A stretch of 64,000 bases of DNA from a virus. Positions 16,741 through 54,675 of this stretch are shown in pieces. Location: the IMG/VR virus record IMGVR_UViG_3300048926_000477. One strand, given 5' to 3'. Under the pieces are notes generated by a model that was given only the letters and a program-made list of their open reading frames with translations, was not told the origin of the DNA and did not search any database. Made by a program: the position numbers and the translations under genes. How positions within the stretch are numbered: the first letter of the stretch is position 1; each line of letters starts with the position of its first letter.

Positions 16741-17246
16741 CACGCCACCGCCTTCACGGGCACCGCGCGCGAGGGGTCCTTCTGCACACGGATCTCGCGC
16801 CACGCGCGGAGGCTGAGTTCGCCCGTTGGGAACGGGATGATGATCTCGTCCAGCAGCTTGTCCTCTGGGCCGCCGGCGAGCTCATCGAGAAGCGTGTGCA
16901 GGTGCTCCTTCCACATCGACACACGGAGCGCGTTGTAGCCCTCCATCCAGGTGACACGCTTCTCGGTCACGTCGATCACTCCGAGGAGGTGGCGTCGGAA
17001 GGCGACCGTCTTGCGGTAGACCTCTGCGGGGCAGTTGGGGTCCTCGGCGCGCTGGGCGATCACGCTGTCGATGTACCAGAGCTGCTCGATCAGGGCAGTC
17101 AGGGTCCTGCGGATCACCGCGGGATCTTGGAAGGGGCTGCGGTGGCGGCCGGTGAAGCGGAGGTCGTCGGTCACGACCTCCTGGAAGTCGTCGTCGCTCA
17201 TTGCGACCAGTTCCTCGGCGGTGTAGTCGGCGGTGCTTTCAGTCAT
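16740..17246 (-). CDS. hypothetical protein
   Basis: 168 aa, acidic. Confidence 0.4.
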   Translation of the reverse strand: MTESTADYTAEELVAMSDDDFQEVVTDDLRFTGRHRSPFQDPAVIRRTLTALIEQLWYIDSVIAQRAEDPNCPAEVYRKTVAFRRHLLGVIDVTEKRVTWMEGYNALRVSMWKEHLHTLLDELAGGPEDKLLDEIIIPFPTGELSLRAWREIRVQKDPSRAVPVKAVA

Positions 17247-17397
17247 TTTCGTTCCTTTCGATGGGGTCTTCGAGTGCTTTCATTCGGACGTAAGTCGCGG
17301 TGGGGAGGTTGTGGAGGGCGGCGTGCTGTTCGATGACACGCTTCTGCTCGCGAGTGACCTCGATGTTGATGAGCACCTTGCCTTTGGAGATCGTCAT
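17239..17397 (-). CDS. ribbon-helix-helix (CopG/Arc-like) small DNA-binding protein
   Basis: 52 aa MTISKGKVLINIEVTREQKRVIEQHAALHNLPTATYVRMKALEDPIERNEND; start overlaps the upstream stop (ATGA); not in the ORF track. Confidence 0.4.
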   Translation of the reverse strand: MTISKGKVLINIEVTREQKRVIEQHAALHNLPTATYVRMKALEDPIERNEND

Positions 17398-18194
17398 GCC
17401 GCCCACTCCTGGCCGGCGAGAAGGGCGGCGTCGGATGGCGGCTGCGGCGTAGCTTCCGGCTCAGTTGCCGGCCCCTTCCTCTTCGGCGTCATGCGCTTCG
17501 CATCGGGCGCGAGGAGAGCGAGCCACTCATCCACCCAGAGCGAGAAGTCGCCGCCGACCTGGAAGATGTGGTCGTGCACGATGCGAGTGGTGCCGTCGTT
17601 GACCCGACGGTTCATCGCCATGCCCTCTTGGATGCGGCGCTCCTCGGTCCAGTTGAGCTCCTTGGCGCGGTTCTTGTCGACGGTGTAGTCGACCTCGTTG
17701 GGCCGCACGATGCCGACAGGGTCGGCCACGCGCGCGACCTGGAAGGCCGCTGTGGAGCCTTCCGCACCCTTACCCATGTAGGAAGCTCGGAAGCCGAGAG
17801 CGTGCTCTGGGTGGCGCGCCTCGACCGTGTAGCGGCGTGCCACGTACCCCTCGTAGCGCACGTCGCCCGCGCTGTACGTCTTCTTGTTGCCCTCCTTGGA
17901 GTCAGCCAGGTAGAGCACGGGTGAAACGTCGCCGACTGTGAGCCACGCCTGCACCTCGAGGCCGAGGGCGACGGCGGCGTTGAATGCCTTCTTGGGGGAT
18001 ACGCCGAGCGCGCCAGCATCGATCTTGTGGTTGGGGATTGTGACCGTCGTCACACCGCCGACGACAGGCTCTTCCTCGTCGTCGATCGGAGCGCCTGCCT
18101 TCTCCGCGAGCCACGCTCGGCGCTGATCGGCGTACTCGCGCATGTATTCCTCGGCGGTGAGCCCCATGCGCGACGGCCGGAAGTCGAAGCTCAT
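17394..18194 (-). CDS. hypothetical protein
   Basis: 266 aa; no recognisable motif. Confidence 0.4.
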   Translation of the reverse strand: MSFDFRPSRMGLTAEEYMREYADQRRAWLAEKAGAPIDDEEEPVVGGVTTVTIPNHKIDAGALGVSPKKAFNAAVALGLEVQAWLTVGDVSPVLYLADSKEGNKKTYSAGDVRYEGYVARRYTVEARHPEHALGFRASYMGKGAEGSTAAFQVARVADPVGIVRPNEVDYTVDKNRAKELNWTEERRIQEGMAMNRRVNDGTTRIVHDHIFQVGGDFSLWVDEWLALLAPDAKRMTPKRKGPATEPEATPQPPSDAALLAGQEWAA

Positions 18195-18592
18195 CGCCCG
18201 GGCCCTCCGAAGCCGTCCCCGCCGACCAGCTGGTCGAGTCGGTCAGGGAGGATCTCGTACGCGAGCTTCGTCCCCTCGCCGAACATCGCTTGCATCCACA
18301 TCTCCTCCGTGAAGGAGCCTGCAGCGCCGGCGGGCGCGTTGAGCATGAAGTCGAGTGCGGCCTTGACGCTCTCGAGTCGCTCGACGTTCTCGGGACGGAT
18401 GACGACGCTCTCGGTGTAGAAGGGCGCGGGCTCGCCGAAGCACAGCATCCGGCCAGGAGAACCGGGCACCGCCGGGACCACCTGCACCAGGTAGGGCAGG
18501 CCGAGCTCCGCCTTCGCCTGGCGCAGCACGGTCTCCTGCGCCGCCGTCAGTGGGTACGGGTGGACGGGGAGGGGGCGAACGTCGGCGCTCAT
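18191..18592 (-). CDS. hypothetical protein
   Basis: 133 aa from ATG 18592 (MSADVRPLPVHPYPL); ATGA overlap with the upstream gene. Confidence 0.4.
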   Translation of the reverse strand: MSADVRPLPVHPYPLTAAQETVLRQAKAELGLPYLVQVVPAVPGSPGRMLCFGEPAPFYTESVVIRPENVERLESVKAALDFMLNAPAGAAGSFTEEMWMQAMFGEGTKLAYEILPDRLDQLVGGDGFGGPGR

Positions 18593-18984
18593 GCTGCAGC
18601 TCCTTCGCTGGCGCGGCGCACGCGCCACTTGACACTGGACCAGGGCTGACCGAGGAGGCGGGCGAGGAAGCCGCTGCTGGTGCCCTGCTTGACGATGTGC
18701 GCGGTCAGGCGCGGGTTGGTCTCCCGCGCATCCTTCAGCGCGAACTCCTCGAGGATGAGCTCGAGAGTGTCGGGGTTGAAGCGGCCGCCGGTGTGGTCGG
18801 TCTTGTCGAACCTCTGACGGGCGTAGTGCTTCGAGACGCCGGCGATCTGGGTGATGTGCATGATCGACCACACGCCGTGCTCGACCAAGAGCTTCACGGC
18901 CTCGTCGCGCTGGAACTCGTCGAAGCCCGCGTTGCGCCTGTAGATGTCCAGGGCCTCCCGGACAGCCTTTCGGTTGTCAGCCAT
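18589..18984 (-). CDS. HTH DNA-binding protein
   Basis: 131 aa; MHITQIAGVSKHYARQRF is a helix-turn-helix. Confidence 0.45.
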   Translation of the reverse strand: MADNRKAVREALDIYRRNAGFDEFQRDEAVKLLVEHGVWSIMHITQIAGVSKHYARQRFDKTDHTGGRFNPDTLELILEEFALKDARETNPRLTAHIVKQGTSSGFLARLLGQPWSSVKWRVRRASEGAAA

Positions 18985-21661: not shown

Positions 21662-21737
21662 TGGCTCCCCGGGCAGGACTCGAACCTGCGACCAACGGCT
21701 TAACAGGCCGCCGCTCTGCCAACTGAGCTACCGGGGA
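21662..21737 (-). tRNA. tRNA-Asn (anticodon GTT), CCA encoded
   Basis: Manual fold: acceptor tccccgg/ccgggga, D arm gctc-agttggca-gagc, anticodon stem gcggc/gccgt with loop ctGTTaa, T arm gcagg-ttcgagt-cctgc, discriminator g, CCA; 76 nt. Confidence 0.7.
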
Positions 21738-23596: not shown

Positions 23597-23652
23597 TTCT
23601 GTTCCTCTCTCGAACTGAAGTGTAGGTGGCGATTAGCTAGATAAGGCGGGGT

Positions 23653-24761: not shown

Positions 24762-24867
24762 CTTTTCTCCTTCGTTTCGTGATCTTCGCCCTGCGGCGAT
24801 GACTCAACGATAGCCGTATTTAGCTAGCTAATTCAAGATGCGAGCACCGCTTAATTTGCGGCAGTTT

Positions 24868-25158
24868 CTATGCAGTGTGCCCCAGCTTCTCGAGCCAGTG
24901 GCGCTGCTTCCCCTTGTCCCAGGCGATGCCACCCTTGACTCCCCAGGCGGGCTTGTCGACGAGCGCCGAGCGCCGGCAGATATCCAGCAAAGGGCAGCCG
25001 GAGCACAGGGCCTTCGCCTCCTCTTCACCCGGCGGCTTGTCGTAGTCAACGTACAGGTCGAAGCGCTCGACACACTTCGGCTGCGGCTGCTTAGGATCCT
25101 TCTCGGCGAGGGCAAGCGCGACGCGAAGCTCGAAGGTGTCGCCGCGGTTGGTCCTCAC
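24868..25158 (-). CDS. whiB: WhiB-family transcriptional regulator
   Basis: 96 aa; Cys pattern C-x(n)-CSGCPLLDIC followed by a GVKGG turn and a basic tail, typical of WhiB. Confidence 0.65.
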   Translation of the reverse strand: MRTNRGDTFELRVALALAEKDPKQPQPKCVERFDLYVDYDKPPGEEEAKALCSGCPLLDICRRSALVDKPAWGVKGGIAWDKGKQRHWLEKLGHTA

Positions 25159-25445: not shown

Positions 25446-25871
25446 CTAGAGGACTCGACGGCCGTTCTTCGGTGCGAACTCTCGATGCAACTCCAGAAGC
25501 CTCTCCGACGCCGCGATCTGCTTCCACACCGGGTTCCACTCGGCACTGAAGTTGGACCTGACCTCAAGCCTTCGCAGTCTCCTGCGCACCGCGTTGGCGC
25601 TGAAGGGGTGCAGATCTTCGGCGATCCACGTGGCCGGCAGCCCTTCCTTCCCTAGCTCCGCGAGGCGTTTGAGCGTCTGCTCACCCATCGGCTTCGACAC
25701 CGCACCACTGCGCCTGCCGCGACGATGCAGTCGCTTCTGGAGCGTGTCGGATGTCCATGGCGTCCCCCGGCGGGTCTTGTGGCCGGCGAGGTTGAGTGCA
25801 TACGCGGCCTCGCGGTAGCTACTGGTCGACCTGACGGCTTCGTCAATCGCCTGATCGAGATCTGTCACCAC
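25446..25871 (-). CDS. DNA-binding protein with two HTH-like segments
   Basis: GTG start overlapping the upstream stop (GTGA); SYREAAYALNLAGHKTRRGTPWTSDTLQKRL and TLKRLAELGKEGLPATWIAEDL are HTH-like; too short to be a recombinase. Confidence 0.4.
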   Translation of the reverse strand: MVTDLDQAIDEAVRSTSSYREAAYALNLAGHKTRRGTPWTSDTLQKRLHRRGRRSGAVSKPMGEQTLKRLAELGKEGLPATWIAEDLHPFSANAVRRRLRRLEVRSNFSAEWNPVWKQIAASERLLELHREFAPKNGRRVL

Positions 25872-27374: not shown

Positions 27375-28595
27375 TCAGCCCTTCACGCAGAGGATTGTGT
27401 CGAGCTTCTGCACGACTTCCACCAGATCGCTCTCGGCGGCGATGACGCTGTCGAGGTCCTTGTAAGCGAGCGAGATCTCGTCGATCACGCCCGCATCGGT
27501 GCGCGCCTCGATGCCCTTCATGGTGCGCTCGACATCCTCGACGGTGAACCGGCGCTTGGCTTCGCCGCGGCTCATCTTGCGGCCGGCGCCGTGGCTGGCC
27601 GACTGGAAGGAGGCTTCGTTGCCGAGTCCACGCACGATGTACGAGCCGGTCGCCATGCTGCCGGGGATGAGCGCCAGCTCCCCCTTCTTCGCGCTGATCG
27701 CGCCCTTGCGGGTGACGATCATCTGTCGACCGTCGATGATCTCCTCGGCGACGTAGTTGTGGTGGCAGTTGATCTCCTCGTCGTAGTCGACGAAGTAGCG
27801 CCCCTCGAGGTGGTCCGACAGCTCACGCTTGACGAGCTCCATCATGATCGTGCGCGAGCGCATCGCGTACTCCTGGGCCCAGTGCAGGTCGTGGAGGTAC
27901 TCGTTCATCTCGGGCGTGCCCTTGTAGAAGAGGGAGAGCTCCTGCAGGTGCTTCGGAAGGTCCTGGTTCACCTCGAGCGACTTGGCCTTCTCGATGTGGC
28001 GGGTGCCGAGCACGTTTCCGATGCCGCGGGAGCCGGAGTGCAGGGTGATCCAGATGCGCTTCTGCGCGTCGGTCGTCAGCTCGATGAAGTGGTTGCCGCC
28101 GCCAAGGCTGCCCATCTGCCGCCAGGCGCGCTCCTCCATCGCCCCCACGGGCGCGAACAGGTCGAGGAAGCGTTCCATGAAGCGGTGGTGATTGTTGGCC
28201 CATGCGTGCCCGAGGAGCTTGCTCACGCGCACGTCGCTCGCGTGCATGTTGTTGCCGACGGGAATGGCGTCCTGGAACCGCTGGCGAAGCATCTTCAGAT
28301 CGCGCTCGTCCAGGTCGTCGAGCACGAGGTTCGTGCGCACGGCGTTCACACCGCAACCGATGTCGACGCCGACGGCGGCCGGCGCGAGCGCCTGCTCCAT
28401 CGCGATCACCGAGCCGACGGTGGCGCCGTTGCCCCAGTGCACGTCGGGCATGACCCTCAGGCCGTACAGGCCCGGCAGCTGGGAGACGCTGCGCAGCTGG
28501 TCGAGCGCGCTGTGCTCGATCTCGTGCTCGTGCGCCCAGGCGAGGACCGGGGCTGCAGTGCCGGAGAGGGTGGTGGGGAACTCGTGGTTGGTCAT
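27375..28595 (-). CDS. rtcB: RtcB-family RNA ligase (3'-phosphate/5'-OH RNA-splicing ligase)
   Basis: 406 aa; signature blocks VGVDIGCG, GGGNHFIEL, HSGSRGIGN, NCHHNY and SASHGAGR (nucleotidyl-His region). Confidence 0.85.
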   Translation of the reverse strand: MTNHEFPTTLSGTAAPVLAWAHEHEIEHSALDQLRSVSQLPGLYGLRVMPDVHWGNGATVGSVIAMEQALAPAAVGVDIGCGVNAVRTNLVLDDLDERDLKMLRQRFQDAIPVGNNMHASDVRVSKLLGHAWANNHHRFMERFLDLFAPVGAMEERAWRQMGSLGGGNHFIELTTDAQKRIWITLHSGSRGIGNVLGTRHIEKAKSLEVNQDLPKHLQELSLFYKGTPEMNEYLHDLHWAQEYAMRSRTIMMELVKRELSDHLEGRYFVDYDEEINCHHNYVAEEIIDGRQMIVTRKGAISAKKGELALIPGSMATGSYIVRGLGNEASFQSASHGAGRKMSRGEAKRRFTVEDVERTMKGIEARTDAGVIDEISLAYKDLDSVIAAESDLVEVVQKLDTILCVKG

Positions 28596-37576: not shown

Positions 37577-38160
37577 GCGGTCACCTGCAGGCTCTCGGCG
37601 GCGTGGGCGCTGAACGCGTCGACCATGGCGGCGTGCATCGCGCGTCGAGTGTTGGCGTCTATGGCCGCGCTGTAGAACTCGCGCGCGCCCTCATCCTGGC
37701 GGTACTTGTCCCACGGGGCGCGGTTGTTGTTCGAGAGGTAGCCGAGGCTGTGCCCGTAGTCCTTCGCGGCGGCGATGAGCGCGGCGCGGTATTCCTGCAC
37801 GGTCCACGCGGGCAGGTCGAGCGTGAGGGCGTCGAACTCGGTGCTGAGCGTCGCGCTCATGCGGTCGGTGAGCGCGTTGGACCAGATGCCGCCGCGCAGG
37901 CCGTAGCCCGCGTGCTCGATCTGGTGATACGTGCCCACGTCCGACAGGTGCCGCGTGGTGCGCCCGATCTTGACCAGGGTTTCCCCGCTCAGACGGTCGC
38001 CGTTCGGCTGCACCGGCGAGATCACGGCTCGCTTGTGGTACATGTCGCCGGCGTCGTCCACGCTGCGCGCGTCCCAGATCATCCAGAGCACGGGTTCACC
38101 GGTTTCGGCGATGGTGAGGCTCGGCAGGGAGAACGTGTCGCCGTAGGTGAGGGTGCTCAC
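37573..38160 (-). CDS. hypothetical protein
   Basis: GTG 38160 with GTGA overlap; VSTLTYGDTFSLPS... Confidence 0.4.
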   Translation of the reverse strand: MSTLTYGDTFSLPSLTIAETGEPVLWMIWDARSVDDAGDMYHKRAVISPVQPNGDRLSGETLVKIGRTTRHLSDVGTYHQIEHAGYGLRGGIWSNALTDRMSATLSTEFDALTLDLPAWTVQEYRAALIAAAKDYGHSLGYLSNNNRAPWDKYRQDEGAREFYSAAIDANTRRAMHAAMVDAFSAHAAESLQVTA

Positions 38161-39023
38161 AGGGACACCTCCCCGGCGATGACGCGGCGCGCGAAGTCGG
38201 CGGCCCACTTAGACACGTCCTGCTCGCTCAGCGAGCCCTCACGGCTGTAGTCCTCCGCGGCCTCAAGCGCCAGGTTCTCGACGTAGGCGACGGTGGGCCC
38301 GCTCTCCTCCCCGCGGGCGATGCGGACGGCGGCGATCGCAATGTCGCGCGCCTCGTCGGCATCCTGTGACAGAATCCAGTTCGAGCTACTGACGATCCGC
38401 TCGGCGATCTGCTCGGGGGTAGCCGCGAGCGTCTCGCGTACCGCGGCGGCGAGCACGTCAGCGGTGTTCTCGTCGCCCCCCTCGCGGTCATACCGCGCAT
38501 AGGCCTCGGCGAGCGGCGTCCGGAGAGCGAGTCCCTTCTCTGCCAGCGTGTCGCGCTCGCTCCACCCGCTCACGTAGGCGTCGGTGAGCATGGACAGAAC
38601 GCCGTCCAGCTCGATCAGGCTCGGGATGCCGTCGAAGGCGTCACCTGCGGCGCTGCGCGCGTAGGCGCGTCCGCGCTCGTGCAGGACTTCCATGTCGACG
38701 GCGATGCGCAGTGCAGTGGTCGCTCCCTTGACGCCCTGAGCGTCGGGAGCGCCGGTCGCCAGGGCGTAGGCCTCGATGCTGGGCGGCTCGATCTCGTCGG
38801 CGCGGGCGGTCAGGTCGGCGGCGAGGGTGCGAGCCTGTTCAGGCGTGAGCCTCGCGGCGGGGCCGTTGTACTCGCTCGCGTAGCGCATCCACAGGCCGAT
38901 AGCTTCCGCGCCGCTGTTGGCGCCGATCTCGGTTTCAGTGGCGTCATACGCATTGTGCGGCACGGCGGGCACGGTCATCGTCAGGGCGTGGTGTGCCTTG
39001 CGGGGCGTGGGGTTCGTGTTCAT
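38157..39023 (-). CDS. first gene of the leftward early operon, hypothetical Ala/Glu-rich protein
   Basis: ATG 39023 (MNTNPTPRKAHHALTMTV) preceded by ggag; lies downstream of the predicted promoter at 39100-39129. Confidence 0.45.
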   Translation of the reverse strand: MNTNPTPRKAHHALTMTVPAVPHNAYDATETEIGANSGAEAIGLWMRYASEYNGPAARLTPEQARTLAADLTARADEIEPPSIEAYALATGAPDAQGVKGATTALRIAVDMEVLHERGRAYARSAAGDAFDGIPSLIELDGVLSMLTDAYVSGWSERDTLAEKGLALRTPLAEAYARYDREGGDENTADVLAAAVRETLAATPEQIAERIVSSSNWILSQDADEARDIAIAAVRIARGEESGPTVAYVENLALEAAEDYSREGSLSEQDVSKWAADFARRVIAGEVSL

Positions 39024-39074
39024 GGGAGGTATCTCCGGTCTGTGGAGCGGGTGTCTAGGTGGGGGCGCGGGGCC

Positions 39075-39087
39075 TTTATCTAGATGA
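39075..39087. repeat. palindromic operator-like site tttaTCTAGAtga, downstream of the promoter -10
   Basis: Member of the TTAGCTAGCTAA / TTATCTAGATAA family (at least 16 copies in the window). Confidence 0.5.
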
Positions 39088-39099
39088 TCCGACGATCCC

Positions 39100-39129
39100 A
39101 CCCTAGGGGCGGTGTGTGCTGTGAGTCAA
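39100..39129 (-). promoter_or_regulatory. candidate early leftward sigma-A-type promoter (-35 TTGACT, 18-nt spacer, -10 TAGGGT)
   Basis: On the - strand: TTGACT (+39129..39124), an 18-nt spacer, then TAGGGT (+39105..39100); flanked by two palindromic TTATCTAGATAA-type sites. Confidence 0.45.
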
Positions 39130-39132
39130 CAC

Positions 39133-39146
39133 TTTATCTAGATAAT
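39133..39146. repeat. palindromic operator-like site TTTATCTAGATAAT abutting the promoter -35
   Basis: Perfect palindrome TTATCTAGATAA; same family as above. Confidence 0.5.
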
Positions 39147-39149
39147 CTG

Positions 39150-39610
39150 AGCGGTCGTGATGTGCACAGGCCGCTGTGGAGGGCGTGGACGGGGCTCGAC
39201 GTTGTGCGAATCGTCAATCGGCCGTATTTGGCTGAGTCTGGAGAGGCCGTCCGTATTTGTTCGTGCTTAAGGCCGTATTCAGTTGCTTATCCCCGTATGT
39301 ATGCTTACGACTTCGTATAAAGTATCGCGAACAAATAAGCGAATCCGTAAGCATGCTTATGCCGATATGCAAGTGCTTATGGCGATATGCACGGCTAAAT
39401 ACGGGGAGTCATTTCCCATGGATAAAGGGAAGTAGGGGTGTAGAGGTGTGGGGGTGTGTGTGTGGTGTGTGTAGTTGTATATTCACAAACATTCGTACAT
39501 GGGGGTACGGCGTGCGGCGTTTGGGGGCTCAAAAATCGGGCCTGAAAACGTCGCTGTGGGAACCTACAAACACACGGGGCCTGTTGAGTTGTTCTGAGGG
39601 CGGGGTGGCC
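39150..39610. other. AT-rich non-coding region with iterons and tandem repeats (candidate replication origin / regulatory hub)
   Basis: No credible ORF and GC far below the genome mean; CCGTATTY in 4 direct copies plus 1 inverted copy (39230-39406); 19-bp tandem tgcttatgCcgatatgca / tgcttatgGcgatatgca (39352-39392); 9-bp inverted repeat atgcttacg / cgtaagcat; GT-rich tract 39425-39480. Confidence 0.5.
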
Positions 39611-39753
39611 TAGCTCGAGAGGGGCGGCGGGGTGTACCGGATGCGGCCGGATCGGGTGAGGTTGGCATCCGGGGCGATGCGCTTGACGTGGCGGGCGCAG
39701 CGGCGGGCGAGGGTGGCAGCTTTGGCACCGGGGGTGCGGGTGCGGTCCGACAT
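39610..39753 (-). CDS. small very basic protein (47 aa)
   Basis: MSDRTRTPGAKAATLARRCARHVKRIAPDANLTRSGRIRYTPPPLSS; SD aaagga; not in the ORF track. Confidence 0.35.
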   Translation of the reverse strand: MSDRTRTPGAKAATLARRCARHVKRIAPDANLTRSGRIRYTPPPLSS

Positions 39754-39991
39754 GATGGGCGATCCTTTCGGGGTGGGGGTGGGTTAAGCGGGGAGCGAGA
39801 GAGCGAAGATGAGGATGAGGAGGGCTCCCAGGGCGATCTGGGAGAGGACGGCGGCGAGGGTGCGGATCATCCGTGGCGCCAATCCGTGTTGGCGAAGGCG
39901 TGATAGCCGCACGCGAGGATGGGGAAGGGGCGCCCGGTGTAGATCGTCACAGTGTCGTCACTGTGGTGCGGGCCGGGGGCCTGACAGAGCG

Positions 39992-40183
39992 TCATGCGGA
40001 CACCTCATCCCCGTTAGCGGCGATGATTCGCCGCGTTTGCGCAACGCTCAGTCGTGCGGCACGCGCGATCTCAGCGGCAGGCACACCCTCGCGGTGCGCG
40101 GCGAGAATCTGGCGGTTGCGACCCTCCGCGCTAACCCGCGAGGCGGCGCGTACTGTGTCGAGAATCAGCGGCCACGCGATCAT
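39992..40183 (-). CDS. small HTH regulator (sigma-70 region-4-like / excisionase-like)
   Basis: 63 aa; GVPAAEIARAARLSVAQTRRIIA is a classic helix-turn-helix. Confidence 0.45.
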   Translation of the reverse strand: MIAWPLILDTVRAASRVSAEGRNRQILAAHREGVPAAEIARAARLSVAQTRRIIAANGDEVSA

Positions 40184-40395
40184 GCGGTCACCGTCCGGGC
40201 GCGGGTGAGGCTGACGCGGGCGGCACGGGCGAGGGTGCGGGGCGAAAACCCGGCACCACGCGCCACTCTCATGAGGGCGTCGCGTCCGGCAGTGCGGGCG
40301 GCGTCGCTTGCTGTCCGAATACGGGCGAGCATGAGGCGGTCGAAGAGGGGTGTCGCGTCGGCTTGTGCGGCGAGGCGGTCGTAGATGGGTGACAT
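40180..40395 (-). CDS. small HTH protein
   Basis: ATG 40395 (MSPIYDRL...); the palindromic motif lies 10 nt upstream; GFSPRTLARAARVSLTRARTV is HTH-like; the longer ORF-track version is rejected. Confidence 0.4.
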   Translation of the reverse strand: MSPIYDRLAAQADATPLFDRLMLARIRTASDAARTAGRDALMRVARGAGFSPRTLARAARVSLTRARTVTA

Positions 40396-40459
40396 GCTGT
40401 GCTCCGGTTTAGCTAGATACGGGCGGGTTAGGCGGTGCGGGCCGCGGTGGCCGTGGCGC

Positions 40460-40984
40460 TCATGCGGACGCCCGGTCATAGGTAATCCAGCGCTTGCGCG
40501 CGTTCTCGGTTTCGACGTAGGCGGCGACGGCATCTCGCAGCGCTCCGGCGTCGTGCTCGCGCTGGAATGCGGTGGCGATGGTCTTGAACTTGCGGCGCGC
40601 GGTGGGGATATCGTCGGGCGTCCGGTAGGCGTCGCGATTGATCCGGTAGCCGACGCGCTCGCCCGTGCTCACCGCGGTGAGCATGTGGTCAGTGGTCGAC
40701 GCGTAGAGCGTGACGGTAGCGGAACCGTCGGCGAGGATGCCGTGGCCGATCTGCTCGCCGATCCGGGTGGATAGTTGCGCGTCGAGCGCGAGGGACCGAT
40801 CGAGCAGAGCATTCGTGACGACGCCCAGCGCCGCGGCGATGACGCTATTGGTCGTCGTGTTCGCGGTGAACTCGGCTTCGTGTTCGGCGACGTACTGCGC
40901 CAGTGCGGCGCGTTCCATCTCGCTCATGTCGGCGCGGGTGGCGGCATCCTCCCAGAATGGGGAGAGCGTGGTGGTCATGGTCAT
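40460..40984 (-). CDS. hypothetical protein
   Basis: 174 aa; SD gggag; palindromic motif about 20 nt upstream. Confidence 0.45.
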   Translation of the reverse strand: MTMTTTLSPFWEDAATRADMSEMERAALAQYVAEHEAEFTANTTTNSVIAAALGVVTNALLDRSLALDAQLSTRIGEQIGHGILADGSATVTLYASTTDHMLTAVSTGERVGYRINRDAYRTPDDIPTARRKFKTIATAFQREHDAGALRDAVAAYVETENARKRWITYDRASA

Positions 40985-41015
40985 GGTGGCTCCCAGGTGT
41001 GTTAGCTAGATACGG

Positions 41016-41447
41016 TCAGGCGGTGTAGTCGGCATAGCCGTTGGATGCGTACCACGCGTAACACTCGGCGAGGGTGAGGAAGTGGACAGCCCTGACAAGG
41101 CCGACGCCCGTGTGGTACCACTCGATCCGATAGTCACACCCGTCGGTGTACGTGTTCGCTTCGTACTCGGCGGACTCTGCGTCCTCTGGGATGTAGAGCC
41201 ACACATCGCCGATGGCGCGATACTCCCCGGGCTCACCCTCCCCCATGTACGGGCCGTACTCACCGCCCGTCGTGCGGGCGTCGGCTTCGGCCTGCGTGAT
41301 GGGCTCAGGGGTGGCGCGTCCGGCCTGCGTGGCGTGCATGAATGCCACGGCGTCGGCGTAGCCGCCCCGCGTGGTGAATCCCACGATCGCACCCGCGACG
41401 CGGGCATACACAGTGAACAGGGGGCGGGTGTCCAGCGCTTCGTTCAT
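41016..41447 (-). CDS. hypothetical protein; first gene of the leftward unit at the divergent promoter region
   Basis: 143 aa; ATG 41447 has no SD but has TAGACT 6 nt upstream on the - strand, suggesting a leaderless transcript. Confidence 0.45.
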   Translation of the reverse strand: MNEALDTRPLFTVYARVAGAIVGFTTRGGYADAVAFMHATQAGRATPEPITQAEADARTTGGEYGPYMGEGEPGEYRAIGDVWLYIPEDAESAEYEANTYTDGCDYRIEWYHTGVGLVRAVHFLTLAECYAWYASNGYADYTA

Positions 41448-41692
41448 GGAACAAGTCTACCGTGAGTGCTTAGGTTTAGCTAGATAAATATGTAGTGTGG
41501 GGGAAGTGAGAACCATACTCAACACACGACGGGGAGGGTGGGAGCGGGGCAAGCGACACGAGCGCGCGGATTGGCGACCGCGGGAAACCACTCAGATTTT
41601 CAGAGCGCGGGCGAAGGGCGCGGAGGGTGGGGCGCCCCCACGCGCAGATTTTTCTTCTCCCCCAAATCGGCCATTCCGCTACCATCGGCCCC

Positions 41693-42019
41693 ATGACGCT
41701 CCACTCCCCCGCCCGGCCCCGCATGCGCTTCAGCCCGATCTTCTGGATCGCCCTGGCCGGCCTCATTGCGATCGTCGCCGTGGGCGTCTACTACAACCTC
41801 CCCGCCGTCGCAGACGCCAAGGCCACCGCCGCATGCGAGGACGCCGTCAAGCCGGCCCTCACCGCCCCCGCGTCAGCCTCCTTCCACAGCTGGAAGGTCG
41901 ACGGCGACACCGTCCGAGGCTCCGTCGACAGCCAGAACGGCTTCGGCGCCCTGCTCACGAGCTCCTTCGAGTGCCGCGTCGTCCCCAACGGCACCGCCGC
42001 GCTCATCAGCATCAGCTGA
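41693..42019 (+). CDS. membrane-anchored protein (one TM segment, extracytoplasmic domain)
   Basis: ATG 41693 (MTLHSPARPRMRFSPIFWIALAGLIAIVAVGVYY) preferred over 41627. Confidence 0.45.
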   Translation: MTLHSPARPRMRFSPIFWIALAGLIAIVAVGVYYNLPAVADAKATAACEDAVKPALTAPASASFHSWKVDGDTVRGSVDSQNGFGALLTSSFECRVVPNGTAALISIS

Positions 42020-42238
42020 GCCCCCAGGGCGCCCCGGAACCGCCCATAGACTCCGCGTCAGCCCCCGGTCGAGACGAGTCCTCTCTCCTTGTCCACCGGG
42101 GGCCTTCGCGTTGCCCTAGTTCCACGCCGCCACCACGCGCAAACCCCTCGAGAAGAGCCCACCTCCCACCGAAACGGCCGGTCGCCGCATATTTTTAGCC
42201 AGCAAATACACGCTCAAGCCCCCTTGTTATCTAGATAA

Positions 42239-42619
42239 ATGGGCGATAATCTGGCTACGCGCCACACGGCGAGACACGCCCCAGAAGCGCAATCACCCAG
42301 ATCCCCGTCGAGAGAGGACGAGATCATCCCTTACCCCTTCATCCTGGAAGCCACCGCCAGTGTCGAGACCCGCCTGTTCGTGTGGGCAGACGACTACGAG
42401 CAGGCCCAAGAGCTGCTCCGCGAGCGCGCCGAAGAGCTGGTCGCCTCGATCACCGACCACTTCCCCGGCCTGAAGGGCGCCGACGGTGTCGGCTACACGC
42501 TGAACGCGCGCGGTGCGCACGGATACGAGGTGATCGGCGCTGAGGCCCTCCAGGTCGGCATCCCCACCGTCAGCACCGACGGGGACATCTGCGACGACCC
42601 GGACCACGAGCACGCATGA
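42239..42619 (+). CDS. hypothetical acidic protein
   Basis: 126 aa; the palindrome TTATCTAGATAA directly abuts the ATG. Confidence 0.45.
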   Translation: MGDNLATRHTARHAPEAQSPRSPSREDEIIPYPFILEATASVETRLFVWADDYEQAQELLRERAEELVASITDHFPGLKGADGVGYTLNARGAHGYEVIGAEALQVGIPTVSTDGDICDDPDHEHA

Positions 42620-45778: not shown

Positions 45779-45812
45779 CCCATAGCCCCCCCGAGAGAGG
45801 AATTAGCTAGAT

Positions 45813-46088
45813 ATGTCCAACTTCAACAGTGACATCGTTCTCGGCGACGAGTACGAGGACACCCAGACCGAGTTTCGTGGCATCGCCACGGCGATCTACT
45901 TCTACCAGTACGGCTGTGAGCGGGTGAACCTCGAGGCCTTCGACAAGAAGACCAAGGACATCCGCTCGCTCACCTTCGACGCGCCCCGCCTGCGACACGT
46001 CAAGACCGGCAGGGTCGCGACCGTGACGCGTACAGGTGGTCCCGGAAACGGACGCGAGGCGCGCCGTGACGAGGGGGCTCGTCGATGA
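45813..46088 (+). CDS. hypothetical protein
   Basis: The palindrome ttagctagat directly abuts the ATG; SD gagagagg. Confidence 0.4.
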   Translation: MSNFNSDIVLGDEYEDTQTEFRGIATAIYFYQYGCERVNLEAFDKKTKDIRSLTFDAPRLRHVKTGRVATVTRTGGPGNGREARRDEGARR

Positions 46089-49074: not shown

Positions 49075-49286
49075 GCCCTCACCGCTGGCAGGTCGTCGTC
49101 AAGCCCGGCCCCTTGGGCATCGGGTGGATCGTCAGGCTCGAGAAGAGTCTGCTGCTGTACGGCCCGCGCCTCCGCTCGGCCCTCGGGCCCCGGTTCGCCT
49201 GGTGGTGGCGCCCCACGCACGCCGCCGCAGTCACGAAGGGTTTCGCGCTCGTCACCGAACTCGAGCGACCGAAGGGAATTAGCTAG
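49071..49286 (+). CDS. hypothetical protein
   Basis: 71 aa. Confidence 0.35.
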   Translation: MSPHRWQVVVKPGPLGIGWIVRLEKSLLLYGPRLRSALGPRFAWWWRPTHAAAVTKGFALVTELERPKGIS

Positions 49287-49520
49287 ATGACCGCCTACCT
49301 CGACCGCACCCGCAGCTGGGGCGAGCGCAACGGCGGCGTATCCGACCCCCGCCTCATCCGCCGCCTCGACAACATCCCCGCCAACACCGAAGAGGAGATC
49401 GCCGCCGTGAAGCGCATGATCGCCACCCACTTCCCCGGCGCCGACCCCGCGTCGACGACGACCCGCCACCAGCTGGAGGCCATGCTCCTTCCCGCAGACG
49501 ACCTGGCGCTGGCAGCATGA
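49287..49520 (+). CDS. hypothetical protein
   Basis: The palindrome ttagctag overlaps the ATG. Confidence 0.4.
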   Translation: MTAYLDRTRSWGERNGGVSDPRLIRRLDNIPANTEEEIAAVKRMIATHFPGADPASTTTRHQLEAMLLPADDLALAA

Positions 49521-53250: not shown

Positions 53251-54675
53251 ATGGAAACCGTTACGGATAAGGCCAGCCGTGCGCTGCCCACCTCATCCAT
53301 CAGTACCGACAAGGAATACTTCGCCACCCGCTACAAGCAGGGTGGTCGCACCGTTTACTCCCTGGCCCAGAGCCCAACGCAGGTCACCGGCCTGGTCAAG
53401 CGTCCTGACCCTAGCGCGTCGAACCCGGGAAACCGCCGAATCCGCCCGGACCACGCGAGCGCCTTCGCGCGCTACCTCATCGAGAACGACAATTGGGTCA
53501 TCCCGGGCATCATCCTGCGCGCGCCGAGCATCTTCAGCTTCGAGGAGGACGCCGACGCGGTTGGCTTCCAGACGGGCGTGATGCGCTACGCCGAGCGCAA
53601 CCAGGGCGATATCCAGATACTCGACGGCCAGCACCGAATCCTCGGCTTCCACATGGCTCACGACATGCTGGACGCTCGCATGGACAAGGCGCGGTCGGCC
53701 CGAGCCACCGCGCGCCGCGTGCAGGACGACAACGCAATCAAGGCCGCCGAGGCCGAGATCCGCCAGCTTGACGCCGTGCGCGAGCGCCTCGCGACCGAGC
53801 GCTTCACGGTCGAGATCCACGTAACCGACGACCTGCAGGCGTACCGCCAGATGTTCTTCGATATCGCGGAGAACGCGCTCGGCATCACCGCCTCCGTCAA
53901 GGCGCGCTTCGATGCGCGGAAGGTCGTCAACCGCGCGCTGCCGACGGTGCTCGAGCAATCCCTCCTTGAGGGGCGAGTGGACCTCGAAGCCGACCGCATC
54001 CCGCCGACGAGCACCTACTACCTCGCCGCGCGACACGTCATGGAGACGCTGCGGGTGCTGACCGTCGGCTACGACGGCCGTGTGAGCAAGCGGATGGACA
54101 AGGAGATGAGCGAGGTGGAGATCGCACGCCGCGGCGTGGAGTTCTTCGACGGCCTCGTCGCTGCCTTCCCCGTTCTCACCACGCTCAAGGCCGGTCAGAT
54201 CACGCCCGAGCAGATCCGCAAGAGCTCGCTCATGGGCTCGCCGGCCTTCATCCGCGTGCTCGCCGGTGTCTTCTACGAGCTGACCACGAACCACTCCTAC
54301 ACGCCGAGCATGGTGTTCGAGTTCTTCGGCCGCCTGGCGAAGCACACCAACGCTTCTGCGCACGCCAACTCGATCTGGCGCAAGTACGCTGCTCCCGAGG
54401 CGTTCCACGAGGGCGCCTGGGGCCCGAACCAGCGCCGCCAGGACGCCAAGGGCCTCGTCATGACGATCGCCGACTGGGCGATCGACAAGGAGCCCTTCGT
54501 CGACGCCGAGGCCGAGCCGGCGCCGGTGATCGAAGAGGAAGAGATCGACGAGGACGCACTGATCGACTTCGCCATGGGCCACAACACGAAGCCCCTGGAC
54601 GTGGAGCTGCGCAACGAGGCCGAGGATATCGCCGCTGCGTCGAAAGCCCGCGTGAAGGCCAAGACCACGTCGTAG
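53251..54675 (+). CDS. DGQHR-domain (DndB-like, ParB/Srx-fold) protein
   Basis: 474 aa; exact motif QILDGQHRILG with an upstream FQTGVMRYAERNQGD block, as in DndB/DGQHR proteins; SD ggag; followed by a strong terminator. Confidence 0.65.
   Translation: METVTDKASRALPTSSISTDKEYFATRYKQGGRTVYSLAQSPTQVTGLVKRPDPSASNPGNRRIRPDHASAFARYLIENDNWVIPGIILRAPSIFSFEEDADAVGFQTGVMRYAERNQGDIQILDGQHRILGFHMAHDMLDARMDKARSARATARRVQDDNAIKAAEAEIRQLDAVRERLATERFTVEIHVTDDLQAYRQMFFDIAENALGITASVKARFDARKVVNRALPTVLEQSLLEGRVDLEADRIPPTSTYYLAARHVMETLRVLTVGYDGRVSKRMDKEMSEVEIARRGVEFFDGLVAAFPVLTTLKAGQITPEQIRKSSLMGSPAFIRVLAGVFYELTTNHSYTPSMVFEFFGRLAKHTNASAHANSIWRKYAAPEAFHEGAWGPNQRRQDAKGLVMTIADWAIDKEPFVDAEAEPAPVIEEEEIDEDALIDFAMGHNTKPLDVELRNEAEDIAAASKARVKAKTTS

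Follow-up and report, generated by a model that had tools for sequence, protein, structure and literature searches.

The stretch of DNA analysed here, hereafter the window, comprises 64,000 nucleotides with a GC content of 67% and a siphophage-like gene layout, the principal parts of which are the following.

55.3-61.4 kb: terminase, portal, protease and capsid genes
0.1-11.4 kb: tail genes, including a 1463-aa ORF of tape-measure size
39023 to 15857, minus strand: a 23.2-kb block of replication and nucleotide-metabolism genes
39150..39609: a conserved AT-rich non-coding region with four 18-nt repeats (TGCTTATGSCGATATGCA), 65-nt inverted arms and AAATACGG repeats

The leftward block encodes an SNF2 helicase, RtcB, a WhiB-like protein, an exonuclease-like protein, an AAA_24 protein, a tRNA-Asn and a primase-polymerase with DUF3987, and the primase-polymerase is 27% identical to those of Microbacterium phages. 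Near-identity and protein searches of deposited phages did not return a close relative, nor did the terminase-adjacent protein find a match among them; the window is a novel, uncultured Microbacterium-type siphophage genome. Its host is probably Microbacterium, given that the relatives recovered by protein searches (designated here by L numbers) carry Microbacterium names. The nearest cultured architecture is that of the Microbacterium phage Pioneer3, from which the palindrome described below is absent and whose leftward-block gaps carry TTGACA-N-TAnnnT sequences. Gene calling by third-position GC places seven further minus-strand genes (41447 to 39610) upstream of the promoter studied here, with their own palindrome-associated, leaderless-type promoter-like site at 41476. 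They are set apart from position 39023 by a conserved, repeat-rich and AT-rich non-coding gap of 586 bp in which no terminator is evident; repeats related to those of 39150..39609 are present in L129 and L133, and this region may be an origin or a regulatory array. Among 70 non-structural proteins no integrase, CI/Cro-type repressor, ParAB/partition protein or sigma factor was found, in a window that may miss ~8 kb of the genome. A relation to the ParB fold was seen in one protein only, which is DndB-like and encoded next to the packaging genes; nothing ties it to the palindromes.

At the head of the leftward block, between 39075 and 39146, the minus strand carries a promoter bracketed by two palindromes, with offsets counted from a predicted +1 at 39093 (minus strand).

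39134..39145, minus strand: upstream palindrome TTATCTAGATAA, perfect, at -52..-41, ending 4 nt (AGTG) before the -35
39124..39129, minus strand: -35 hexamer TTGACT, at -36..-31, matching TTGACA at 5/6 positions
between the hexamers, minus strand: promoter spacer CACAGCACACACCGCCCC, 18 nt from TTGACT to TAGGGT
39100..39105, minus strand: -10 hexamer TAGGGT, of the TANNNT class, at -12..-7
39076..39087, minus strand: downstream palindrome TCATCTAGATAA, 12 nt past the -10, at +7..+18, palindromic at 11/12 positions
39024..39093, minus strand: predicted 5' untranslated leader, 70 nt, with a GGAG ribosome-binding site
38157..39023, minus strand: first gene past the promoter, a 288-aa orphan, mosaic with a conserved N-terminus

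The preliminary description had read TTGACT (39129-39124) and TAGGGT (39105-39100) on the minus strand, 18 nt apart, and these coordinates are borne out. Its statement that one palindrome abuts the -35 is essentially right, save for the four intervening nucleotides, as is its placing of the other at +8 to +20, which differs slightly from the span given above and overlooks one mismatch. Each palindrome is part of a 19-nt direct repeat, CTTTATCTAGATRATCYGA, and the two repeats lie 58 bp from each other. That translation starts at the ATG at 39023 is borne out by the N-terminus it specifies, MNTNPTPRKA, which is kept in relatives; 52 nt separate this ATG from the end of the downstream palindrome, including the GGAG Shine-Dalgarno sequence, which sits 8-11 nt ahead of the ATG. 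Significant RNA structure was not found in the leader (z = -1.1), and an Rfam scan of 38900-42400 matched no RNA family.

The segment 39100-39129 is well supported as a predicted promoter of the host housekeeping sigma factor (actinobacterial SigA/HrdB type). It combines a near-TTGACA -35 with a TANNNT -10 at a spacing within 16-19 nt, it is intergenic and oriented toward a gene with a leader and a ribosome-binding site, and its hexamers are conserved relative to the spacer and flanks. TANNNT is the relevant -10 class in high-GC actinobacteria. A promoter scan tuned to the E. coli TATAAT called nothing across 33-50 kb and misses this promoter because TAGGGT agrees with TATAAT at only 3/6 positions. 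TANNNT is itself scarce in the window, with 91 occurrences on both strands (0.0007 per nt). The composite pattern TTGAC-N(17-20)-TANNNT matches twice on both strands of the 64 kb, against 0.63 expected; the second match is antisense within the capsid gene, and 39129-39100 is the sole intergenic full match in the window.

The two palindromes are members of a family dispersed through the window, whose consensus, from a matrix that pools 39 sites of five lineages, is tTAKCTAGCTAA. At two or fewer mismatches the 12-mer is matched 12 times in the 64-kb window, against 0.07 expected, and weaker copies bring the family with a CTAG core to about 14-15 sites. All of the 14 sites lie in or border non-coding DNA, which makes up 7.1% of the window. 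Two matches without the CTAG core (30834 and 35209) fall inside genes and are probably coding coincidences. Beyond the two sites described above, the family is placed as follows.

24820..24831, minus strand: in a promoter spacer downstream of the WhiB-like gene; TTGAAT overlaps TTAGCTAGCTAA, followed by 7 nt and TATCGT
23633..23644, minus strand: before the AAA_24 gene, 8 nt upstream of a TACACT -10
41476..41487, minus strand: in the divergent region, followed by 16 nt, TAGACT, 6 nt and the ATG of a 143-aa gene; leaderless-type geometry
42227..42238, plus strand: a perfect site abutting the ATG of a 126-aa rightward gene, with degenerate copies on either side (42195, 42247)
40409..40420, minus strand: between genes, 13 nt ahead of the gp71 ATG and upstream of the ribosome-binding site; a mosaic junction
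41002..41013, minus strand: in the gap that separates the 143-aa gene from the 174-aa gene, ahead of the ribosome-binding site
45803..45814, plus strand: ahead of the ATG of a rightward gene, following its ribosome-binding site
49279..49290, plus strand: where one rightward gene stops and the next starts, past the ribosome-binding site and before the ATG; kept in L005
13913: just upstream of a ribosome-binding site within a gene run
957, 61403 and 15541: after stop codons, beside terminator hairpins

At least six sites keep a conserved geometry relative to a -10, and at least 5/13 oriented sites have a TANNNT no more than 30 nt downstream, where 1.4 are expected from the non-coding background (P = 0.0085). 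The sites at 23633 and 41476 accompany a good -10 with no recognisable -35, the palindrome covering about -40..-21. About half of the family (8/14 sites) has no adjacent -10 element, so that control of initiation cannot be its only role; such sites separate a ribosome-binding site from its ATG, follow a stop codon or neighbour a terminator. This distribution bears on the standing of the locus, which had been described as the best candidate for the main early control point of a ~24-kb leftward operon whose first ATG is 39023. The ATG stands as the true start, yet seven leftward genes precede it. Moreover, the 23.2-kb block holds gaps of several hundred bp, the tRNA-Asn and at least two internal, conserved promoter-like sites that bear the palindrome (24820 and 23633); it is therefore probably not one operon with one control point, and, given these internal sites and the one at 41476, the locus is one of several control points and not demonstrably the main one, while its early timing is putative.

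As to what the palindrome is, a -10 element is rejected, as no TANNNT occurs inside it, and so is an intrinsic terminator: it has no loop, is AT-rich and lacks a T-run, and a terminator scan was negative at the sites. Start-associated sequences of the Cluster K or EF type, defined as asymmetric motifs at the position of the ribosome-binding site and complementary to the 16S rRNA 3' end, do not fit either, since the present motif is a palindrome, rich in AT and distinct from the GGAG-type ribosome-binding sites. The dyad symmetry of the 12-bp sites is compatible with a dimer, and the two sites around this promoter fall within the footprint of RNA polymerase, as do those at 24820, 23633 and 41476, which sit in the spacer or over the -35 position. 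The asymmetric copies in the window share one absolute strand orientation irrespective of gene direction; this orientation is not kept between lineages, the upstream site being flipped in L133, and for this reason we treat the sites as functionally symmetric. Near-symmetric sites whose asymmetric variants occur in both orientations across lineages are what would be expected for a dimer.

The conservation of the head-of-operon promoter was followed through two sets of relatives. Exact-protein look-ups recovered L001-L004, which are the same phage from four other samples and identical across the promoter region, as well as L005 and L007; a graded series was obtained by a search with the SNF2 helicase, and the head-of-operon regions were aligned on the -10. 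In the three-way alignment of the window, L005 and L007, 66/70 columns from palindrome to palindrome are invariant, with both palindromes, TTGACT and TAGGGT unchanged and all four variable columns outside these elements, located either in the spacer or past the -10 and ahead of the second palindrome. This footprint is modest on its own, because the background identity among the three is 83-91%. Across the graded series the arrangement is as follows, with the identity of the SNF2 protein.

Window, L005 and L007 (SNF2 94-100%): palindrome-4-TTGACT-18-TAGGGT-12-palindrome
L129 (SNF2 77%): palindrome-5-TTGACA-18-TACGCT; downstream copy absent
L131 (SNF2 60%): TACACT-5-ATAGCTAGCTAA; upstream site absent
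L133, a 1.86-Mb Microbacterium contig (SNF2 58%): TTAGCTAGATAA-4-TTGACA-19-TAAGCT-0-GTAGCTAGCTAA

The same geometry thus appears in relatives whose SNF2 proteins are 58-96% identical and whose spacers and flanks are unalignable, and this persistence amid unalignable DNA is the main, and strong, evidence from sequence comparison that promoter and palindromes are functional. Paired palindromes occur again, independently, in the distant L133; the dual arrangement is not obligatory, as L129 is without the downstream site and L131 without the upstream one. From centre to centre the palindromes are 58 bp apart in the window and 47 bp apart in L133, values that differ by 11 bp, or about one helical turn, and that are both half-integral in turns (58 bp being about 5.5), which hints at a phasing constraint between the two sites (n = 2). 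The exact promoter string was absent from the viral contigs searched, and the dual-palindrome pattern, sought in viral and metagenome collections, turned up in unrelated AT-rich sequences only (0/121 loci above 55% GC). A search with the extended promoter 18-mer, TTAGCTAGCTAAATACGG, matched a single contig of the genome collection, and that contig is phage-like.

The other palindrome-linked promoters behave alike. The layout downstream of the WhiB-like gene, with the palindrome in the spacer, is kept in L129, L130, L131, L133 and L137. At the AAA_24 promoter the palindrome is followed after 7-9 nt by TACACT or TAGACT in the window, L129, L130, L131 and L137, and L133 has a degenerate copy there. 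In the divergent region of L129 the order is palindrome, 15 nt, TATCAT, 6 nt and ATG, the intervening sequence being unrelated to that of the window. Offsets from palindrome to -10 are thus fixed across lineages at four promoter types, the head-of-operon promoter included, and this last is the only one with a canonical -35.

Two lineages essentially lack this motif. In L138 (SNF2 51%) the orthologous -10 is retained, TACGCTCGACAC (TACGCT, as in L129), with one degenerate upstream copy, TTATCTAGGTAA, and no other family member. Exactly two exact GATAA-N4-TTATC palindromes occur in its 21.6 kb, 15 nt past the orthologous -10 and 6 nt before the TACACT of AAA_24; a composition-based estimate gives ~0.02 such exact palindromes by chance, and a shuffle control with one mismatch allowed gives 0.68. 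On the chromosome of Microbacterium marinum, L139 (SNF2 50%) shows CTAG just once in 22 kb and no copy of the family at all; at its promoter downstream of WhiB, the spacer and -10 are overlain by CCATATACGTATATGG, a palindrome of 16 bp without mismatch, and the site upstream of AAA_24, TTTAGCGCGCAAA, lies 7 nt ahead of TAGACT. Lineage-specific palindromes at conserved positions are the pattern that operator and regulator exchanged together would leave, and we count them as support and not as proof, because the numbers are small. L006, considered as a further negative control, was downgraded, as it covers only a mosaic-replaced early module.

From the elements themselves, their rarity, their conservation and their geometry across lineages we infer a model of binding, repression and timing at this promoter. 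A host polymerase of SigA/HrdB type would start, or restart, leftward transcription into the replication and nucleotide-metabolism block, and a dimeric DNA-binding protein would recognise tTAKCTAGCTAA and control the promoter negatively, one dimer sitting just upstream of the -35 (centre -46.5) and another over the initially transcribed region (centre +12.5). The dimer at +12.5 would block open-complex formation or escape; that at -46.5 would disturb upstream contacts, or could touch the polymerase. The open complex of RNA polymerase covers roughly -55 to +20. As both sites lie inside this footprint, a dimer bound there ought to keep the polymerase from binding or from leaving the promoter. 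About a dozen further sites of the genome would be targets of this protein, some within promoters and the rest in short intergenic gaps, so that the promoter would be one node of a small phage-wide regulon and not a single master switch.

The operator reading of the palindromes, already advanced in the preliminary description, has gained ground: the family is promoter-linked and genome-wide, the dual layout recurs in L133, and comparative conservation makes the reading well supported. That a SigA-type promoter is negatively controlled by a dimer at flanking palindromes, as a node of a regulon, is the interpretation we favour and hold to be fairly probable. We likewise lean toward repression as the most economical sign of the regulation, because elsewhere the palindromes occupy the spacer or the -35, classical positions for occlusion; the upstream site at -46.5, clear of the -35, could equally be the position of an activator.

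The main, though clearly less probable, alternative is a dual-function switch, in which the binder would repress the canonical promoter and activate the -35-less promoters (23633, 24820, 41476), maybe with the WhiB-like protein. WhiB-family proteins bind region 4 of SigA, and a switch of this kind would parallel phi29 p4, lambda CI at PRM, or the appropriation of sigma by T4 MotA/AsiA. It would suit the canonical -35 being confined to the head-of-operon promoter, the palindrome at about -40..-21 of the 23633 and 41476 promoters with their good -10 and missing -35, and a WhiB-like gene, present in all lineages, directly upstream of the palindrome-in-spacer promoter. Yet a site centred near -27 usually occludes RNA polymerase, WhiB is found in the motif-less L138 and L139 as well, and the -35-less promoters may call for no activator, as is true of many actinobacterial promoters without a -35. 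Bolder, and to our mind improbable, is the proposal that a novel phage regulator, possibly of the gp139 HTH family described below, and the WhiB-like protein together re-programme SigA, turning the canonical promoter off by way of its flanking sites and turning on the -35-less ones, where the palindrome would stand in for the -35.

The sites without a nearby -10 (8/14), in tiny gaps of co-directional runs or by terminators, invite another view, namely that the palindromes mainly serve a role outside initiation, as stoperator-like roadblocks to elongation or in a DNA-level role as proposed for Cluster O repeats, their placing around this promoter then being secondary. Precedents in other actinobacteriophages (PMC4351075, PMC7302621, PMC9283540) and the single absolute orientation of asymmetric variants in the window, whatever the gene direction, agree with it. 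We nonetheless consider it a rather unlikely main role, in view of the palindrome-to-(-10) offsets conserved at four promoter types, the other palindromes that L138 and L139 carry at these promoter positions, and an orientation that differs across lineages, as at the flipped upstream site of L133. About as doubtful is a host (Microbacterium) transcription factor that would bind the palindromes and couple phage expression to host physiology, with no binder encoded by the phage. No phage protein co-occurs cleanly with the motif, which is common to phages with heavily mosaic early-gene content, as a host factor would explain. However, the motif differs between closely syntenic lineages that apparently all infect Microbacterium (L138, L139), which fits a phage-borne specificity better, and the 18-mer occurred in just the one phage-like genome-collection contig, in a search limited to the extended promoter sequence. 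Least probable by far, and scarcely credible to us, is that the palindromes are gene-boundary linkers promoting the recombinational exchange of modules, with an incidental link to promoters: the 40409 site does border a block of homology with L005/L007 where the flanking genes are swapped for unrelated ones, but any conserved intergenic element tends to mark mosaic boundaries, 12 bp is very short for homologous recombination, and dyad symmetry, fixed -10 offsets and two copies around one promoter would be left unexplained.

For the dimer that would bind these operators, the phage genes offer a short list, of which the following were retained.

25450..25868, minus strand: gp139, HTH family, 139 aa; in all motif-bearing lineages and not in L138, with a partial homologue in the motif-less L139
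39610-39753: gp47, arginine-rich; conserved where covered, L139 included
18589-18984: gp131, two HTH-like helix pairs in a low-confidence model (pLDDT 54); conserved where covered, L139 included

The best guess for the palindrome-binding protein is gp139, a putative assignment; its ORF is overlooked by simple ORF filters. The family has about 120 representatives, and in a scan of 46 members HTH_23 was matched by 32/46, the resolvase HTH_7 by 22/46 and Sigma70_r4_2 by 20/46, while the family profile matches solved HTH domains of resolvase/invertase and GerE type. The putative recognition helices of gp139 vary between lineages that share the motif, and homologues of gp139, gp47, gp131 and WhiB are all present in the motif-less L139. 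The WhiB-like protein (24868-25158) was set aside as binder, occurring in all lineages, motif-less ones included. Also excluded were gp63 (39992-40183; weak HTH, 63 aa), which is found in the motif-less L006 and missing from the motif-bearing L005 and L007, and the ribbon-helix-helix protein RHH55 (17239-17406; 55 aa), missing from L130. The highly conserved gp71 (40180-40395) was demoted, as it is missing from L129 and L131; its AlphaFold model consists of three helices without a structural match in the PDB.

Phage promoters under operator control are familiar from textbooks, and as a kind the arrangement holds no surprise. Several operators flank or overlap the promoters at lambda OR/OL (CI/Cro) and phi29 A2b/A2c/A3 (p4). 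The likeness to these lies in a promoter of the sigma-70 family, more than one palindromic operator in its footprint, a position at the head of a long operon and an adjacent divergent control region; unlike there, no CI, Cro or p4 homologue is at hand, and the operators stand clear of the hexamers, 58 bp apart (47 bp in L133), and are reused at many distant sites. Thus, of the classic dual-operator arrangement first proposed, the bracketing of the promoter by two palindromes stands, and a lambda-type design does not, since the hexamers are not overlapped, the sites are 58 bp apart and CI/Cro are missing. The KorA/KorB regulon of plasmid RK2, with operators GTTTAGCTAAAC and TTTAGCSGCTAAA, offers a resemblance only: about a dozen palindromes of 12-13 bp, a TTAGC-type half-site, variable positions at promoters and the coordination of several operons. 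No KorA/KorB homologue was identified here, however, and the half-site spacing differs.

Closer in kind are repeats of other actinobacteriophages. Cluster O mycobacteriophages carry a dyad-symmetric intergenic repeat, TGTTCGGNNNCCGAACA, in more than 30 copies (PMC4351075), and Cluster EG Microbacterium phages carry GATCAACCNNGGTTGATC in 8-10 copies, 14-22 bp upstream of start codons (PMC7302621). The function of both was described as unknown and no binding protein was identified there (PMC4351075, PMC7302621); in Cluster O, association with a promoter is the exception, and a role other than the control of initiation was the authors' conclusion (PMC4351075). The likeness is of a short palindrome in some ten or more copies, placed in small gaps of an actinobacteriophage that looks non-temperate, kept between relatives despite diverged flanks, with predicted binding of a dimer; the sequence is unrelated, and in contrast at least six sites here are tied to a -10 and two bracket a canonical promoter. 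In Cluster A mycobacteriophages (L5 gp71, TipsytheTRex) one regulator acts at more than 20 sites, as operators and stoperators, and these sites are 13-bp, asymmetric and monomer-bound, with an orientation that follows transcription, in phages that are temperate (PMC9283540). The sites described here are similarly genome-wide, some in promoters and others in short gaps, whereas they are near-palindromic and have no orientation consistent with transcription. A Cluster A-type stoperator system is rejected on this symmetry and orientation, and an integrase or immunity repressor was not found in the window, a statement on lifestyle that holds for a window possibly ~8 kb short of the genome, with relatives (L133, L139) that lie in chromosomal contigs. 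No phage or bacterial paper came up when the literature was searched for the motif string.

Actinobacteriophage genomes of several clusters pose a recurring puzzle in their short repeated palindromes, and the present phage group offers an unusually clean case, with fixed -10 offsets, a bracketed canonical promoter and swapped palindromes in sister lineages. The regulatory hypothesis is directly testable and its list of candidate regulators is short, and the work defines promoter and operator parts for Microbacterium genetics. If the re-programming of SigA were true, it would be an actinobacterial analogue of T4 MotA/AsiA, with operator sequences swapped between lineages, for which L138 and L139 give a hint.

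Directly upstream of the leftward promoter lies a conserved, AT-rich non-coding region, made up as follows:

39150-39609: the AT-rich non-coding region as a whole
39251-39315 and 39340-39404: 65-nt inverted arms
39222, 39251, 39273 and 39398: AAATACGG/CCGTATTT repeats
four copies within the region: 18-nt repeats TGCTTATGSCGATATGCA

Related repeats are carried by the close relatives L005 and L007 and by the more distant lineages L129 and L133, and as single-stranded DNA the region 39150-39609 forms a somewhat better fold than shuffled sequence does (z = -2.4). It looks like a replication origin or a second binding-site array. One of its repeats, AAATACGG, recurs in the WhiB-downstream promoter (24814-24831, TTAGCTAGCTAAATACGGC), with no gap between it and the palindrome; the resulting 18-mer is identical in several lineages (the window, with equivalents in L129, L130, and L137), and this conservation suggests that a second factor binds there, beside the one that recognizes the palindrome.

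Palindromes are also clustered around the perfect copy at 42227, which is flanked by two degenerate ones:

42195: degenerate copy TTAGCCAGCAAA, 32 bp from 42227, start to start
42247: degenerate copy TAATCTGGCTAC, 20 bp from 42227, start to start

All three copies (42195-42258) fall within a 90-nt block kept in L005, together with a -10-like element, TATTTT, and the rightward gene set is probably controlled from this region. At 41447-41487 (minus strand), 6 nt separate a TAGACT -10 from the ATG of a 143-aa leftward gene, with no ribosome-binding site ahead of that ATG; the same geometry recurs at 92-133 of L129 in unrelated sequence. Judged from this layout, the mRNA of the gene appears to be leaderless.

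At all the asymmetric palindrome copies of the window (23633, 40409, 41002, 41476, 45803, and 49279) the plus strand reads TTAGCTAGATAx, whether the adjoining gene runs leftward or rightward. This uniformity may be due to chance, or it may in part be forced by the start codons that overlap the copies at 45803 and 49279; between lineages the orientation varies, being flipped in L133. CTAG itself is strongly depleted in the window, with 36 occurrences against roughly 195 expected by our own estimate from base composition, and about 15 of the 36 fall within the palindrome family. In L139, the chromosomal relative in which the motif has been lost, a single CTAG occurs in 22 kb. The palindrome at 40409 sits on the border of a homology block (window 40396-40459, compared with L005 and L007): the gp71 module beside it is common to all three genomes, while the gene on its other side has been swapped for unrelated ones. 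Palindromes therefore mark mosaic junctions.

Two small open reading frames were also noted:

39610-39753, minus strand: 47-aa arginine-rich ORF with the core ARRCARHxK...GRIR
25450-25868, minus strand: 139-aa ORF in an apparent 474-bp gap between called genes

The first, usually the final gene ahead of the long non-coding region, is 100% identical in L005 and L007 despite neighbours that are only 70-85% identical; it has homologues in L129, L131, L133, and L139, and its single, weak PHROG match is to a family of unknown function. The second, easily missed by ORF filters because of its GTG start, is one of a family of small HTH proteins with about 120 members; in some relatives the N-terminal unit is repeated 3-9 times.

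Structural genes leave the window at its right end and resume at its left end, and its exact proteins also turn up on a metagenome contig of 287.6 kb, perhaps a genome of roughly 70 kb in concatemeric form. L133 and L139 are embedded hundreds of kb deep in chromosomal contigs of Microbacterium; the group may therefore include temperate members, though no integrase was seen in the window.

Two further features may bear on modification and repair:

53251-54675, plus strand: DndB-like protein of 474 aa (Pfam E = 2.9e-26)
21662-21737: tRNA-Asn

The DndB-like protein (DNA-sulfur-modification-associated, ParB-fold-related) is encoded immediately ahead of the packaging genes; no partner genes were identified for it, and its family assignment hints at a role in DNA modification or anti-defence. 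RtcB is encoded by the window (27375-28595, minus strand), L005, L130, and L133, whereas L129 (11964-14271) has a different RNA-repair module at the corresponding place, a polynucleotide kinase-phosphatase with an RNA ligase, as has the cultured phage Pioneer3. Together with the tRNA-Asn, this exchange suggests a means of countering host tRNA-cleaving defences.
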